Shown: positions 1,304 through 60,200, numbered from the stretch's first letter. The stretch is DNA of 64,000 bases from Bilabrum cf. latius (GCA_965178125.1 OZ237767.1:372001-436000); one strand, 5' to 3'. Program-made: numbers and translations. The notes: generated by a model from the letters alone, not told the origin.

Positions 1304-3642
1304 TCAAGTGCCGGCATCGTCCCCCCCTCGATCGGCGGGCCCTCCCTCCACGGCCGCTCCCTCATCGCGATTGCCTGTGTCAGAACGCCCAGCCGCTGCC
1401 ACCGCCCCACCACTACCGGAATTGCTGAGATCCTCCTCGTCCAGCGACACAGACCTTTGCCTGCCTCTCCTGCCCCTCCTCTTCACCTACCCCGCACCAA
1501 TGCCTTGACCTCCTGTTCCTACCCATCCCACTGGGGTCGGCTGCGGTGAGGGTGATGATGATGATGCTGGACCGCCGGCTGCACTCGTCACACGAATGCC
1601 CGGCCGGTCGCCCCTCGCAGCCGTGGACAGGGCCGCTGTTCCCCTTGTTCCCTAGCCGATCCCGTACCTGCCGTCGCTGACCGACCTAACCTCTGCCCCC
1701 GCCCCGGCTCCAGCCCATGAGTTGGCGCCGATGCGTGGGGGTAGCCCACGTACTGTACCCGTTGTGGCCTGCATGTGTGACGAGTGCGATGTCCCGCCCT
1801 CGTCCAGTCTCCTGACCCCCACCCTGGGGCTAGCCTCTGCCCACTCGTCATACCCGCTCGTCATACCAGTAGTACCGCTCGATGCCCGGCTGCCCCCAGT
1901 AAATCCGCCGCTTCTGCTCCTACGGAACGCGCTGTTGCCACCGCTGCCGCCAGTCGCTCTGCCGCTCAGCAGCACGGCAAAATGCAGAGCACCCTGCTGC
2001 ATGCTCCTGGGGGACTCATCCGCCCTGTCACCGTCCACGTCCCCGTCCTCGCCATCGTCACCCGACCCAAGATCCAAAGCAGAGTCTCCATGATGCAGCC
2101 GGTGCAGGTCCCTAGCCAGCTCCAGTGCGGTGTCAGTCACGGCCCGCGTGCGGAGGGAATCCGATGCCAAGCCGGAAGAAGACCGTCTGCTGCGGCCTCC
2201 TCCCCTCCTCCCGCGGCCGCCCACTCCTGCACCGAGACCGTCAGCACTCGTCACACGGAGAAAATCCATGCGGGGCGGCAGCGCGGGCAGCAGCGAGTCC
2301 TCTTCCTCGCCCCCCCCACCGACGGGGGAGGGCAGGGGAAATGCGCCCGGGGGTGAGCGGTGCATCTCCTGGCCCGTGCTGCGGGCATCGGCGCCCTTCG
2401 GGCTCACTGCCGCAGCAGCACTTTCATCATCATCATCATCATCATAATCACCGTTATCGTCTACCTCTGTTACATCTCGCCGGCCGTAGGGCCCGCCATC
2501 GTCCGCCTCGTTCTCCCCCTTCCCGCCTGCACCTGCTTGCGACATGCGCGCCACCTAGTCATCGAGGTCCGTTGCTCCGGTGCGGGTCCCGGGCGAACCA
2601 CTCGTCACACCGACCCGGATCCGCAGGTCTTCCGTTCCACGCCGGGGGCTAGGCGTGATGTCTGCGCCGGTGCCCACTGCCAACGCCCCTGAGTCACTCG
2701 TCACACCAATCTCCGAGGCAGTCCCCGCCGACTCCCCCCGCCTGCTCCTCGTGCCCTCCCTGCCGCCTGCGACGCTCTCCAAGCCGGCAAACGAAGACGT
2801 CCTCAATCTGTGGCCGCTACCCCCGCCCCCCACCACGCCCCACCGTTGGCCTTGTGCTGCAGCGGCCAGAGCGTCTACGGCGGCGTGTGCTCCCGCAGGC
2901 GGCGCGTCCTCCCACACACCCTCCTCATCCTGCTCAAACCAGAGCCTGTTCAGCACCGTGACGTCAATGTCTGCTATTTCCGGGGTGCCCGAGGAGTGAA
3001 GGTCGGCCCACGCGCCGCGTGCAGGGAGTCGCTTCGCGTCGGGGTCCGTGAATGTCTCCCTGCTGCTGAGCGACGGAATCAGCATGGTGTTGTACCCAGT
3101 GTATGCCAGCAGAAACATCGAGAATGAAACGAGCATCCAGGCCGGTATCGTCACCGCCAGCTCCTTGCTGGGATAGTAGGTGAACCCGACCGCGAGCAGC
3201 CATGCCTCAGGTACGAAAGCCCAAACAAAGAAGATGACTGCGAGCAAGATACTACGAAGGCAAAATTTGACGAGTCCATGACAAGTTTAAACATTATCAT
3301 GCGCATGCAAAACGGTGCCTGCCTTACTTAAAGACAAGGCGCTGATGGCCCATCCAGCGAATCCATACGCTGCCACGAGCCTGCTTTCTTTGACCTCAAC
3401 ATCAATATCACCAGCCGACGAAGCTCGTCTCCTGCGATTTCTAGCGGGGAAAACTAGAGACATACACGCTGGACGGTAGAATCCAACACTCAGCCAATTG
3501 CAACACGGGGTTCTCACCTGCTTGAGACCGAAGACGGTGATCCAGACTAAGATTCGACCGAGTCGGCTCTTTGGCGACTTTTACGATTCGAAGAAGGAGT
3601 ACTGACGCGACTCCTTCTCCCAGATGGCGTCGCGCGCTCCAT
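1304..3642 (-). CDS. PIGP: PIG-P-like GPI-GlcNAc transferase subunit with a long low-complexity C-terminal extension (spliced; in-frame TAG at 3547, 2555, 1652, 1487)
   Basis: Removing intron 3238-3327 gives YGFAGWAISALSLIIFFVWAFVPEAWL...TYYPSKELAVTIPAW...PEIADIDVTVLNRLWF, the PIG-P pattern. ORF pieces 2555-3247, 1652-2554 and 1304-1486 share one frame, are joined only by TAG, and end at TGA. The start and first exon are provisional. Confidence 0.8.
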
Positions 3643-3761
3643 CGAATGGCACAGACAGGAACTTGAAGTTGCTCTTTGCTGCATAAACGAACCTTCGATA
3701 AGATACGGGATGAGGTTCGCTCTGAACACGTAACCTCCAGAACTTCACACTGTGGGCAACT

Positions 3762-56918: not shown

Positions 56919-57200
56919 GCACGACGTCTCGTTCGCGGTGCTGCAAGCGTGAAACGGTCCGGCCGGCAGGCACTCTGTGCGCCACAGTGTGGCCCCGGCC
57001 ACTGCCGCACTGTGGGGCTGTTTTCGTCGGCGGAGTAGATCGCTGGCAGTGACTTGCAAATAGTTGCATGCTTGGTTTGTGATCTCGGTTTTACAGACAG
57101 GACTGTTGGACGAGTCGGTCTGGCTATTCAACTGATACACTGCATGGGCACGAGTACAAGGTGCCACGCGTCGTAGAGACCTTCAGAATATATGCACAAG

Positions 57201-60200
57201 TCACACCTTGATCAAGATGCCGTCATTGATCCTGATCTTGTTGCTGGCTGCCAGGTTTGCAATGGCCTCCTCGACCAGCTCATCCGAGAGCCCACCGAGC
57301 TTGGGGTCCTGGTCCCTCAGCTTGAACACGAGAGACTTGGCCATCGCGTCGGTCTTGCGCTTGCGGTAGTACTTGCCGATCAGCTTGCCCAGCCGTCTCT
57401 GCATGGACCTCTCCTTCTTGCTCCTGACGGGCCCGCCCTCATCTTCTTCCTCCTGCTCCTCCTCCTCCTCGCCCCCGGCTTGTTCCCTCGCCTGCCTCTC
57501 TTCCTCCAGTCGGCCGGCAGCCTGGACCAGCCTCTCGCTAGCAGTCAGGGCCTTCTTCCCCTTGCCTTTGCCCTTGCCCTTCTTCGAGGGGGTGCTGCGG
57601 CGGGCCTTGGCTCCGGCCCGCACGCGCCGGTTGCCCACCAGGCGAGCCCGCCCGGCACCATCCTCGTCGCCGTCGTCCTCGTCCTCGTCCTCGTCCAGCT
57701 CGTCATCGATGTCATCGTCGCCGTGGCCACCGGCAGCGCCAGCCCCCGGGGGACCCCCATCACCACCGTGCGATGCACCCGCCGCGCTGCCCCTGGCACC
57801 GCCGGGCCTGCCCTTTGCCCCAGTGAAGGTGAACCCGGCGCTGTTGTATAGAGCGTACTTGACAACCTCGTAGGCCGCCGAGACGTCCTCAACGGACACC
57901 TCGGTGGACAGCCGCGCCTTTGCGTGCGCGCTGCTGAGTCGGATCATGGTCTCTAGGGAGCGGGCGGTCACCGGCATGGACCTTTCTGCGGACCGGGCCC
58001 GCATCTCGTTGTAGCAGCTCACGATCGTGTCCCTGGCCTCGTCCGACAGCTGCGGCTGCACGCGGTTCTTCGCGAAGTGAATGAACTTCTTCAAAAAGTC
58101 CAGGTGCAGCAGCTCCACATGAGATGGCGCGCCGGCCGTGCCACTCGCGGCAGTGCCTGCACTGGTGGAAGCACTCCGTCGCCTGACAGAAGGATCCTCA
58201 TCCTCGTCCGCGTCCTCGTCCTCGTCCTCGCTCTCGTCGCTGTCCCTCGAGCTAGCTGCCCTCTTCTCCCTCGCCCTCTTACGGGCCTGCACCTCCTCCC
58301 CGTCCTCCACGGCCTCCTGGGCAGCGCCCCCGTGCAGCAGGGGGTTGAACCTCTGCCAGACACGGTCCTTCTGCTCCTCCCCCTCTACCTCGTCGTCCAG
58401 CTCGTCCTCTGGTTTGGCATCCAGCGGTACGGGTCGCCCCTCCAGCCCCGGCCGCACGTACCTGTGCATCCTGAGAACGTGGTCCGCGATGATGGTGTCT
58501 CGGTTCGTGTCGAGAGTGTCGAGCACGATGAAGAGGAGGTCGAATCGAGAAAGCAGGGAATCGGGCAGGTTGACATTCCGCTGGGGGGAGATGGTCGTGT
58601 CGTACTGTCCGTAGATGGGGTTCGCAGCAGCCACCACGCTGCATCGGGCGTTGAGAGTGGCCTGGATCCCCGCCTTTGCGATGGTCACCGTCTGCTGCTC
58701 CATGACCTCGTGGATGGCCACCCGATCCGCGTCGCTCATCTTATCGAACTCGTCGATGCACACCACGCCCCTGTCAGCCAGGACCATGGCACCCGCCTCC
58801 AGACGCCTCTCGCCCGTGTCCTTGTCTGACGTCACTGCGGCGGTGAGACCCACGCCACTCGACCCGCGACCCGTGGTGTTGATGGCCAGCGGCGCGATGT
58901 TGAGAACGAACCGCAGCAGCTGCGACTTTGCGGTGGATGGGTCACCCACCATGAGCACGTTGACGTCACCGCGGAGATGCGTCCCGTTGTCCAGGTTCTT
59001 CTCCACTCCGCCCAGCAGCAGCATCAGCAGGGCCCGCTTGATGTACTTGTGCCCGTAAATGGACGGGGCAAGCGAGCGGGCGAGCAGCTCTGCGAGGAGG
59101 TGTGACGAGCATCATGCAAGAAGAGCAGCGGGTGCGAAGGGGAGCGATTCGCAACTCGAAAGGGAATGGGGAGGGTGGTGGAGGGGGGAAGGGGGCTGTT
59201 GGTGCAGCCACAAGCAGAGGGCCAGGCGTCGAACAAGCAAAGCGCGGGTGGGCAGTCACCGAGAGCTGCAGGGCACAGATCACTCGTCACACCAGGTATC
59301 GAACCACACTCGTCACACCGCTCACCGAAGCAGTCCTCCCTCTTCGCGATGGACCGGATGGTCTTGATGTCATCCCTGTCGATCTCCGTGGTGGCGATCT
59401 GCTTCCTCATCAGCCTCAGGTTATTGGCCAGCAGCACGGCCCTGAAGTGGCCCTGGCTGGTGCCCGTGACCCTGCCTACAAGGGCCCGATACACTCCGCA
59501 CACGGCGACCCTGTCACCCGGCTTGACGATGTCCACGAGGTCGTCGTCCACGATCACGTCCACGGAGCGCGGGAGCTGGCCAAGGGGTGCGCGCTGCGAT
59601 TGAAAGGGGGGAAACAAAGGGAACGGGGGGAGGCAGTGCGGGTGCGGGGAGGCAGAAGCGTGCATTACACGTGTGGCAATCACGGGCCTCGAAGCGTGTC
59701 TGCCCACAATCTTGGGCTGCAGAAGGGGACGGGGGGGGCGATGAGTCATAGGCAGGGCCGGGTGCAGTGCAGTGCAGTGCAGAGGCTCACTTCTGGCATC
59801 TCCTGGATGGTGAAGGTTTGGTGGTCCCTGTACGTCGACAGCCCAAACTCCGTCTCGAGTGGGTTGCCGTCATCGTCCCGCGTGGGATACACGCTGCCAG
59901 TCGGGTCCCCGCTGGGATCCGTGGCGTCACGGTAGGTACGGGTGGTAAACTGCTTGGTGGCGGGGCAGTAGTGCACGGACCTGGAGACCTTGGGCCGGAT
60001 GGGGGACGCCTTGGTGACGATGCCCTCCACCATGACGAGCTGTGTGACGAAGCCGGCCGTGAGCGTGCGGGGCGAGACGAGGCTTCGGCCGAATGCTCCA
60101 TCGAAACCGACGCGCAGCTGCACCGCGCGCGGGTCCAGTGCCGCCTTTGCGAGATCGGAATGCTTCTCGCCGATGCCAGACGCCAGCTTGTCCATGTAAG

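Follow-up and report, generated by a model that had tools for sequence, protein, structure and literature searches.

Introduction

The uptake sequences of competent bacteria (USS in Pasteurellaceae, DUS in Neisseriaceae) are exact words of 9-12 nt, lineage-specific and over-represented hundreds to thousands of fold, which lie in coding DNA where the encoded peptide is tolerated. Uptake bias restores them, with coding constraints deciding which copies survive; their orientation is independent of transcription, and inverted pairs of them are common in terminators. Chi and KOPS are exact, strand-asymmetric, genome-wide words for translocating bacterial enzymes (RecBCD and FtsK, respectively), and their polarity follows replication. 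HIP1 of cyanobacteria (GCGATCGC) is a palindrome that is hyper-abundant in genes and has a debated or unknown function. At the RNA level, PUF-family elements are linear, single-stranded sites of 8-12 nt with a UGUR core; they start with UGUG or UGUA, are read base by base and are mostly found in the 3' UTRs of subsets of genes. Introner elements, described in Micromonas, Aureococcus and others, are intron-generating DNA transposons with terminal inverted repeats.

The stretch of DNA analysed here (64 kb, "the window") carries a 12-nt word, GTGTGACGAGTG, that resembles each of these systems in part; a literature search turned up no paper on it. Like USS and DUS it is an exact word in coding DNA, but it favours the transcript strand and has no copies outside genes. 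Like Chi and KOPS it is exact and strand-asymmetric, with the difference that its polarity follows gene direction. It shares with HIP1 the hyper-abundance of an exact word inside genes, but is non-palindromic and strand-biased. It contains UGUGACGA, which may be likened to a PUF element, although it occurs about once per 3 kb of coding sequence and in most genes. Inverted copies of a short conserved sequence at both ends of MCM3 intron 2 recall introners, whereas the copies in general have no shared internal sequence and are mostly exonic, solitary and crossed unbroken by contigs.

The window comes from a GC-rich microbial eukaryote in which TAG encodes an amino acid. Spliceosomal introns, MCM3 and proteins with ankyrin repeats and EF-hands identify it as a eukaryote. 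The first-pass annotation had missed that TAG is a sense codon, which is why genes appear as giant open frames. A bacterial uptake sequence in the proper sense is rejected, as the host is a eukaryote with spliceosomal introns, and we know of no DNA uptake machinery in eukaryotes. The analogy that the annotation had drawn with USS/DUS, Chi and HIP1 nevertheless fits the statistics: exact copies alone are in excess, variants form no halo around them, and the copies lie where proteins tolerate them.

Results

The annotation had counted 14 exact 12-mers and four 11-mers in the window, and all of them were recovered (Table 1). No exact 12-mer occurred in 100 dinucleotide shuffles. The four additional 11-mers (6871, 40197, 46563, 53763) raise the number of exact copies of the 11-letter core TGTGACGAGTG to 18, against 0.1 expected. 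The core is mostly preceded by TG or G and followed by C or A. Core copies with one mismatch number 6 (1.15 expected) and those with two mismatches 19 (17.8 expected); allowing up to two mismatches in the 12-mer gives 31 copies, compared with a mean of 5.81 and a maximum of 12 in shuffles. Counts of one- and two-mismatch variants stay close to chance, which makes the word sharply defined; a large excess of the exact string, without a matching excess of near variants, is what a selected genome-wide recognition word would show. Its density inside genes is about one per 3-4 kb.

Codon usage does not explain these counts. A codon-aware model (3-periodic Markov of orders 1 to 3, for which the training set was 41,529 nt from reading frames of the window after masking of the words) predicts 0.009-0.016 copies of the 11-mer, where 16 are seen in reading frames, and 0.002-0.004 copies of the 12-mer, so that the observed count is more than 1000-fold above expectation. 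Within the 14,825 codons, 13 of the 18 V-T-S tripeptides are spelled GTG ACG AGT, a spelling that codon usage predicts for 1.7%. Both results bear out the earlier claim of a nucleic-acid signal rather than a peptide motif.

At most about 2 nt of either flank are conserved among the copies. A dispersed repeat or mobile element (MITE, introner) would share sequence past the core, and the copies do not; even the three 168-nt units in the EF-hand gene have nothing but the word in common. Folding of 15 copies with 44-nt flanks yielded no common structure (z from -2.64 to +1.55). Local tandem multiplication is frequent, with 18-nt and 26-nt pairs within the window. Four variants with 2-3 mismatches at 10580-10735 were discarded as members of the word family, as they belong to a local tandem repeat of 48 nt that codes for an ankyrin-like unit, GHDECVRVLEEAMG-stop.

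Table 1. Copies of the word, close variants and associated features in the window
Feature	Position	Strand	Reading and context
PIG-P gene	ORF 1304-3286		copy at 1582 lies 287 nt before stop
Exact 12-mer	1582..1593	-	sense, R-V-T-S-A; disordered tail of PIG-P gene
Exact 12-mer	1775..1786	+	antisense to PIG-P ORF, H-S-S-H; inverted partner of variant at 1842
One-mismatch variant GTATGACGAGTG	1842..1853	-	56 nt from inverted copy at 1775
Second variant	1855-1866		accompanies GTATGACGAGTG
Exact 12-mer	2245..2256	-	sense, V-T-S frame; PIG-P tail
Exact 12-mer	2599..2610	-	sense, V-T-S frame; PIG-P tail
Exact 12-mer	2695..2706	-	sense, V-T-S frame; PIG-P tail
Pair: ATGTGACGAGTG + 6 nt + GTGTGACGAGTG	6871..6900	+	GH2 gene, D-V-T-S-D-Q-G-V-T-S
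One-mismatch variant GTGTGACGATTG	8719..8730	+	GH2 ORF
Exact 12-mer	14182..14193	-	sense, V-T-S frame; 341 nt before stop of 3768-codon ORF 13850-25156
Exact 12-mer	24317..24328	+	antisense, H-S-S-H; near 5' end of 3768-codon ORF
Exact 12-mer	38112..38123	+	sense, H-G-V-T-S; EF-hand protein ORF 34352-40534
Partial inverted partner	38192-38203		partner of copy at 38112
Exact 12-mer	38280..38291	+	sense, H-G-V-T-S; exactly 168 nt past copy at 38112
Exact 12-mer	38448..38459	+	sense, H-G-V-T-S; exactly 168 nt past copy at 38280
11-mer copy CTGTGACGAGTG	40197..40208	+	sense, V-T-S frame; 335 nt before EF-hand ORF stop
11-mer copy ATGTGACGAGTG	46563..46574	+	sense, C-D-E-C; ankyrin protein ORF 45151-48429
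One-mismatch variant GTGTGACGAATG	50825..50836	-	ORF 49134-52592
11-mer copy ATGTGACGAGTG	53763..53774	-	sense, D-V-T-S; ORF 53233-55287
Exact 12-mer	56133..56144	+	sense, G-V-T-S; past GDSL domain, ORF 55103-56398; 263 nt before stop
Partial inverted copy (10/12)	59100..59111	+	about 10 nt before 3' splice site of MCM3 intron 2
Two exact 12-mers, 14 nt apart	59281..59318	-	sense; +7 and +33 of MCM3 intron 2 (59088-59326)

The word also occurs outside the window, a point on which the annotation had made its own reading depend. Ten metagenome contigs carry it at similar density, all with the TAG-sense signature; nine are distinct, and the tenth (L109) repeats the region of another (L038) at 98%. 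These relatives have no blastn hit to the window, and the joint presence of word and TAG-sense signature implies that the word predates their divergence, yet its copies are exact. The core is found in the relatives in 31 exact copies (0 expected), 6 with one mismatch (0.95) and 11 with two (12.9), in a sample of 47 kb, next to the 64 kb of the window, that was found through the word itself and consists of contigs with paired copies. Relative L003 contains arrays of 15-nt period, encoding (D-G-V-T-S)n. In the remaining 108 metagenome loci and in 8 viral loci, copies are limited to local tandems. Among the sampled contigs with paired copies, the word is thus shared by a clade and not dispersed elsewhere, as a recognition word would be.

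Sixteen of the 18 core copies in the window lie within long reading frames, and the remaining two, as annotated, in MCM3 intron 2. Translation reproduced the annotated readings: V-T-S in 13 cases, C-D-E-C in one (46563) and H-S-S-H in the two antisense copies (1775, 24317). The preference for V-T-S turned out to reflect coding constraints, since one sense frame contains TGA and the model favours V-T-S over C-D-E-C 3-6 fold. The strand bias held up, but is partial. The sense strand carries the word in 16 of 18 cases, as annotated (14 versus 2 in long frames alone). When the relatives are included and copies are grouped, 24 clusters are sense and 7 antisense (p = 0.003 against 1:1), and coding constraints, which allow 1.25:1, do not account for this ratio (p = 0.018). 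The 7 antisense clusters out of 31 are equally exact; the window has 2 exact antisense copies and the relatives have 8. Along the window, copies switch between the strands together with gene direction. Opposite-strand copies at most 300 nt apart exceed random placement (8 pairs, P = 0.015), and most copies have no inverted partner.

With genic territory defined by open frames rather than by annotation, 0 of the 18 copies fall in the roughly 28.5-29% of the window outside genes (P about 0.002 under uniform placement). The copies occur in insertions, loops and disordered tails, and where a gene has a Pfam match (PIG-P, GH2, EF-hand, GDSL) they lie outside the matched domain. In an alignment with 28 homologues the GH2 loop has 13 extra residues, and it is there that the pair is encoded. 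In the closest homologue A-V-I-S aligns to D-V-T-S, suggesting a point change at a pre-adapted site rather than an insertion.

Three sequencing runs (X5, X7, X8) yielded five GT..AG joined forms and therefore contain spliced RNA; their type is not on record, X5 is flagged as probably DNA, and their contigs could miss rare spliced forms. Eight exact copies in exons are crossed by contigs of these runs, and none of the listed joints reaches a copy. They pass through 1582-2706 and 6871-6900 without difference or joint; the copy at 1582-1593 is spanned by records 2 of X5 and 21 of X8, and the GH2 pair by record 16 of X7 (6579-7732). As the contigs run unbroken through the copies, the word is exonic and not a splice signal.

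The word is not alone: at least two further words are likewise exact and over-represented, namely CAGGGAACA and GCGCGGCGCC with its partner GGTTCCGC. GCGCGGCGCC lies within 11-30 nt of GGTTCCGC in 8 of 9 cases, in either order and orientation. Both are found in both orientations, also outside long frames in spacer-like stretches; they behave like DNA sites, which means that the genome has words of the DNA type. CAGGGAACA forms near-palindromes (TGTTCCC-N-GGGAACA) at 9245 and 29622, and its sense bias is fully explained by composition in the codon-aware model. Its density is 0.316 per kb in the relatives; the remaining metagenome loci have 2 copies (0.004 per kb) and the 8 viral loci none.

Discussion

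The word is most likely a docking site for a putative reader of transcripts or DNA. Our leading, if tentative, explanation is that selection maintains it as a recognition word in transcribed gene bodies and that it is read on the transcript. Selection, rather than recent spread, would keep this lineage-specific word exact inside transcribed gene bodies, presumably where the encoded peptide, (G)VTS, is harmless, as in loops and disordered tails. The transcript rather than the DNA would be read, with the word serving as a linear single-stranded site on pre-mRNA or mRNA. Candidate readers are a guide RNA complementary to the word and a repeat-type RNA-binding protein such as a PUF or PPR protein. 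Such a reader would mark the long transcripts that the organism itself makes, or handle them. The sense bias, the exclusively genic copies, the contigs that cross them unbroken and the lack of a common fold would suit a PUF-like element, yet the exact antisense clusters speak against a reading on the transcript, for which they would be superfluous unless they are pairing partners. The DNA-type behaviour of GCGCGGCGCC/GGTTCCGC also speaks against it.

These last observations lend some weight to docking at the DNA level, which we regard as possible but doubtful. A sequence-specific protein, for example a general factor of the Myb/Rap1 or bZIP kind, would bind the double-stranded word and affect chromatin, replication, recombination or polar transcription events in gene bodies, with the strand bias arising through directional interaction with transcription. 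TGACG, a half-site, lies within the word, as do two GGTGT/GAGTG-like halves at a distance of 8 bp; these may resemble bZIP and Rap1 sites. The window's two antisense copies both have the word GTACCCGT upstream and the word ATGTCCCGC downstream, as in a cluster of sites, and the exactness of antisense copies, the excess of close opposite-strand pairs, the GCGCGGCGCC-GGTTCCGC pairing and the CAGGGAACA near-palindromes point the same way. However, coding composition does not account for the sense bias, and regulatory DNA sites are usually concentrated outside genes, where this word has no copies.

It is unlikely that the word owes its abundance to a molecular drive without cellular function, in which biased repair, gene conversion or short templated insertion recreates it and coding constraints decide which copies survive. 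The restriction of the excess to exact copies, the positions in insertions, loops and disordered tails, local tandem multiplication (the 18-nt and 26-nt pairs, the 15-nt arrays of L003) and a 3-nt length variant between the two GH2 copies in other runs would suit such a drive. We know of no such mechanism in eukaryotes, though; strand bias and restriction to genes would require the added assumption of transcription coupling, and the GH2 alignment favours point change.

Very improbable is a role in splicing, be it as a splice-proximal signal, an intron-end "zipper" or an introner-like terminal inverted repeat, with the exonic copies in unrecognized or retained introns. MCM3 intron 2 has the word near both ends, 7 nt past the 5' splice site and, as the inverted copy at 59100, near the 3' site, and the two are predicted to pair (z = -2.47). 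Likewise, the word and an inverted 9-mer are found at opposite ends of the 90-nt in-frame GT..AG segment 38112-38201, and the two pair in the predicted fold. But MCM3 intron 2 is the only one of seven mapped introns with the word (the other six start with GTGAG, GTGGG or GTTAG), no joint touches the eight exonic copies crossed by contigs, and frames remain open for 87-842 codons past sense copies. Local alignment of the inner parts of the three inverted pairs shows no likeness beyond that of shuffles (0.26-0.70 of shuffles reach the scores), so these pairs do not constitute one mobile family, and inverted partners are the exception.

An ordinary cause (peptide motif, codon or dipeptide bias, recent segment duplication, assembly or adapter artefact) is scarcely credible: most copies do encode V-T-S and the variants at 10580-10735 are indeed due to a coding tandem repeat, but peptide motif and codon usage are rejected by the spelling bias and the codon-aware model, flanks are unrelated, some copies are intronic, antisense or in a different frame, and the word is identical in contigs of three other runs and present in contigs of other metagenomes.

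To return to the reading on the transcript, a broader version of it is speculative and, in our judgement, rather improbable. This recoded lineage, in which TAG encodes an amino acid, might mark its gene bodies with a vocabulary of exact words (GGTGTGACGAGTG, CAGGGAACA, perhaps more). Dedicated readers on nascent transcripts would then recognise in these words a mark of "self" that licenses elongation, export or protection against silencing. If true, this would be a eukaryotic, transcript-level counterpart of bacterial self-recognition words, and it could separate host RNA from foreign or viral RNA.

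Results

The first-pass annotation, working from the sequence alone, had claimed 14 dispersed exact copies of the 12-mer GTGTGACGAGTG (complement CACUCGUCACA; hereafter the word), and these were recovered copy for copy, while dinucleotide-preserving shuffles contained none. With up to two mismatches allowed, there are 31 copies against a shuffle mean of 5.8. The 11-nt core TGTGACGAGTG occurs 18 times exactly in the window, where 0.1 copies are expected, and its near variants number 6 with one mismatch (1.15 expected) and 19 with two (17.8 expected). As the latter two classes are close to chance, the word is sharply defined and has no halo of decayed copies. 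The flanks of the copies are unrelated, except for a preferred T-G directly before and C/A directly after. In an unbiased k-mer survey the word came out as the strongest of several over-represented words. Two palindromes, GAACGTTC (12 copies, 1.3 expected) and TGACGTCA (12 copies, 2.8 expected), are also over-represented in the window relative to an order-4 Markov model. Four variants at 10580-10735, considered as members of the word family, belong to a 48-nt tandem repeat instead.

The window is eukaryotic, with 60% G+C, and TAG is a sense codon in it. TAG accounts for 20 of the 27 single stops that lie between open stretches of 150 or more codons each, and reading through it yields frames of 3768, 2060, 1220, 1152 and 1092 codons. 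In the longest of these, TGA is absent and TAG occurs 15 times, compared with 56 and 58 TGAs and 16 and 28 TAGs in the other two reading frames. TGA terminates translation, and TAA probably does so too: eleven frames hold 66 in-frame TAGs, but only one TAA (CAA:CAG 92:413). The sugar-binding domain of the GH2 gene contains three in-frame TAGs, across which 28 homologues align, with Q12/T11/E3/S2 at the first column, G20/E3/A2/Q1/P1/S1 at the second, and variable residues at the third. A contig of X7, one of the public sequencing runs compared with the window, spans these codons without any difference. Going by sequence comparison, the residue inserted at TAG is likely to be glutamine or glutamate, and unlikely to be leucine.

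The minus-strand MCM3 gene has two introns, with six homologues aligning to its three coding segments and junction codons matching G/GTGAGC ... CAG/; five further introns are evident from joined contigs. In an MCM3 tree, the window falls among unnamed sequences and adjoins a clade with a labyrinthulomycete, outside Fungi. A passage of PMC5304391 reports a UAR = Gln code for the aphelid Amoeboaphelidium. An aphelid origin was nevertheless rejected, because of the position outside Fungi and because TAA is not a sense codon here. The literature search results, whether for aphelid genomes or for reassigned UAG codons in stramenopiles or labyrinthulomycetes, contained no report for such a lineage.

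The suggestion that the word is a nucleic-acid signal and not a peptide motif was supported. GTG ACG AGT spells 13 of the 18 V-T-S tripeptides in 14,825 codons, whereas codon usage gives 1.7%. A 3-periodic Markov model, built on the frames of the window itself after masking of the words, predicts 0.009-0.016 copies, so that codon usage does not explain the word, which exceeds this background more than 1000-fold. The peptide readings also agreed with those proposed, namely (G/R/D)-V-T-S for 13 copies, C-D-E-C for one and H-S-S-H for two. The periodic model explains the choice of frame, since one sense frame holds TGA and V-T-S is favored over C-D-E-C 3-6 fold, but not the choice of strand, for which it predicts a sense:antisense ratio of 0.97-1.25. 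If TAG is translated, long frames make up 69% of the window and hold 16 of the 18 core copies, 14 in sense and 2 in antisense orientation. The remaining two, both sense, lie in MCM3 intron 2, at +7 and +33. No core copy in the window lies outside genes, as defined by open frames (P ~0.002 under uniform placement).

Metagenome contigs were scanned for two copies of the word within 2-32 nt, a pattern that by design also picks up local tandem repeats. At least 118 loci matched, of which 108 are unrelated local tandem repeats of any G+C content, as are all eight matches in the viral collection. Among the matches listed, ten loci, which represent nine different sequences, stand apart; one metagenome supplied eight of the ten. 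Once TAG is read through, the longest frame of these loci lengthens two- to five-fold. They also contain additional dispersed copies in frames of 474-1784 codons, most of them read in the V-T-S frame. The word is thus not confined to the window, but is dispersed in ten TAG-sense loci, its relatives. Blastn and tblastx with all loci found no stretch orthologous to the window, and the ten relatives share no nucleotide similarity with it. The relatives, about 47 kb in addition to the 64 kb of the window and found via the word itself, have 31 exact copies and 6 with one mismatch (0.95 expected). A word that is common to organisms diverged beyond DNA similarity, and that is mainly exact, is subject to purifying selection or else to continuous regeneration. 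The sole overlapping pair of relatives (L038 and L109) differs at some distance from the word, by one unit of a 39-nt tandem repeat, and is uninformative on the conservation of the word. In frames of 400 codons or more, window and relatives together have 24 sense and 7 antisense clusters (p = 0.003 against 1:1; p = 0.018 against 1.25:1). The strand bias put forward in the annotation is therefore real, and the copies are genic, one intron included, but at about 3:1 the bias is only partial.

In the genes that have Pfam matches, the copies avoid the matched domains. They occupy the long tail beyond the PIG-P domain, the stretch of the GH2 protein that separates its N-terminal and TIM-barrel domains, linkers of the EF-hand protein, and the sequence past the GDSL domain. 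The loop that holds the GH2 pair exceeds that of the closest homologues by 13 residues, and the first D-V-T-S of the pair aligns with A-V-I-S in the closest one. In other runs, a 3-nt deletion between the GH2 copies produces a 15-nt period, as in the (D-G-V-T-S)n arrays of the relative L003, and in one divergent run numerous indels come directly after the second copy. In one gene, three copies follow one another at a constant spacing of exactly 168 nt (56 codons). They all have the form CA(T/C)-GGT-GTG-ACG-AGT, in units that otherwise share nothing. A 552-residue piece with three copies (P0121) gave no homologue at E <= 1e-5 when compared with proteins 303-966 residues long. In four of the seven frames with sense copies (432 to 3769 codons), the last sense copy lies 263-341 nt ahead of the stop, a post hoc pattern that hints at a 3'-end position. 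The two exact antisense copies have further words in common at comparable distances: each is preceded by GTACCCGT at 12-20 nt and followed by ATGTCCCGC at 2-3 nt. The window's plus strand contains ATGTCCCGC four times.

Two companion words were characterized. CAGGGAACA(AG) has 13 copies in the window (0.4 expected), again with no halo and always inside long frames, and CAGGGAACA is found in all three sense frames as well as in antisense. All 18 copies of the 8-mer AGGGAACA lie in long frames, with a sense:antisense ratio of 14:4, as composition alone predicts. CAGGGAACA reaches 0.316 per kb in the TAG-sense relatives, compared with 0.004 per kb in the other loci, and since loci were not chosen for it, this enrichment is an independent link to the relatives. 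Copies preceded by T read TAG GGA ACA, the others CAG GGA ACA, and two sites form near-palindromes. The other word, GCGCGGCGCC, has 9 copies in the window (0.55 expected), mostly after T and partly outside long frames, in AT-richer spacer-like stretches. In eight of the nine cases, GGTTCCGC lies 11-30 nt away, in any order and orientation, and GCGCGGCGCC is also present in the relatives. Judged by this arrangement, the pair looks like a composite DNA regulatory site.

Contigs from four public runs were compared over window positions 1-20000. Three runs (X5, X7 and X8) contain joined forms of five GT..AG introns and so derive at least partly from spliced RNA, their run types not being on record. 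Their contigs cross copies of the word without difference. No joint among those listed for this range touches a copy, although contigs can miss rare spliced forms, and the word was not found in six other mapped introns. MCM3 intron 2 has an inverted copy (10/12 matches) some 10 nt upstream of the 3' splice site, which a predicted fold pairs with the first copy, bringing the splice sites close to each other (z = -2.47). A second inverted pair of this kind stands at the two ends of a GT..AG segment that is 90 nt long and in frame. Eight pairs of opposite-strand copies lie less than 300 nt apart, more than under random placement (P = 0.015). A mobile-element family was rejected, as the inner sequences of the pairs are unrelated, and folding led us to reject a common local RNA structure at the copies. 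tRNA and Rfam scans of the window gave no match.

Beyond its stop, a spliced minus-strand gene is followed by a 48-nt tandem repeat (3.4 copies), each unit of which re-encodes an ankyrin-like HDECVRVLEEAMG-stop (also given as GHDECVRVLEEAMG-stop). Contig depth there is many-fold that of the neighborhood in each of the four runs, with numerous divergent contigs, suggesting that the unit is multi-copy in genome or transcriptome.

Positions of features in the window (nt)
Feature	Position	Remark
TAG-sense frames (examples)	13850-25156; 34352-40534; 5739-9401	strands -, +, +
MCM3 coding segments	60552-59791; 59596-59327; 59087-57837	minus strand
Last sense copies near stop	1582; 14182; 40197; 56133	287, 341, 335 and 263 nt ahead of stop
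Three evenly spaced copies	38112; 38280; 38448	
Antisense copies with extra words	1755-1797; 24289-24340	
Deletion between GH2 copies	6885-6887	other runs
Indels past second GH2 copy	6902-6936	one divergent run
Copies crossed by contigs	1582-2706; 1582-2256; 6871-6900	X5 record 2; X8 record 21; X7 record 16
GT..AG segment with inverted pair	38112-38201	
CAGGGAACA(AG)	1646; 9172; 9253; 14599; 18148; 18312; 21170; 23017; 23883; 36821; 39288; 46545; 50578; 53554; 53892; 57481	and others
CAGGGAACA near-palindromes	9245; 29622	TGTTCCC-N-GGGAACA
GCGCGGCGCC	4718-4738; 19062-19094; 24393-24431; 33447-33470; 38879-38906; 40315-40334; 41715-41739; 44209-44239; 55194	
48-nt tandem repeat	10570-10783	

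Discussion

Hyper-abundant exact words are well known in bacterial genomes, where each has its dedicated machine, such as uptake receptors, RecBCD or FtsK. The likeness to such words drawn in the annotation is borne out by the statistics, which resemble those of USS/DUS, Chi/KOPS and HIP1, but does not extend to membership, since the organism is eukaryotic and the polarity tracks genes, not replication. Introner elements differ in that the word is mostly exonic and its copies share no internal sequence. PUF-type RNA elements are alike in form (linear, starting with UGUG) and unlike in distribution. We know of no eukaryotic nuclear precedent for an exact 11-13-nt word that occurs about once per 3-4 kb in genes, is biased to the transcript strand and is exact across species. 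Among the papers listed by a full-text literature search on the word (either strand, RNA form and 10-11-mers), all concern other subjects, judged by their titles, and the string presumably stands in them as a primer.

Our data are best fitted, though tentatively, by a recognition word that would be read on the transcript by a putative sequence-specific reader. The word is exact, lacks a halo, is lineage-wide and genic, one intron included, and has a sense bias beyond composition. Contigs cross the copies, there is no common fold, the copies seem to sit where the encoded peptide does no harm, and local doubling is frequent, all of which is consistent with such a reading. The antisense copies would then in part be pairing partners. 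That the antisense copies are exact and that the companion words behave in a DNA-like manner argues instead for a site in double-stranded DNA whose link to transcription is directional, a possibility that fits nearly as well and that we hold somewhat less probable than reading on the transcript. Non-functional drive, sieved by coding constraints, is improbable. A general splicing role is largely excluded and very unlikely, given that contigs of runs with spliced RNA cross the copies and that the word is absent from the other six mapped introns. Ordinary causes have next to no standing, as the V-T-S spelling and the periodic Markov model rule out a peptide motif and codon usage.

If the pattern holds genome-wide, a reader must exist. 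The word is a simple sequence tag by which metagenome contigs of this lineage can be spotted, and goes together with a nuclear code that reassigns TAG alone.
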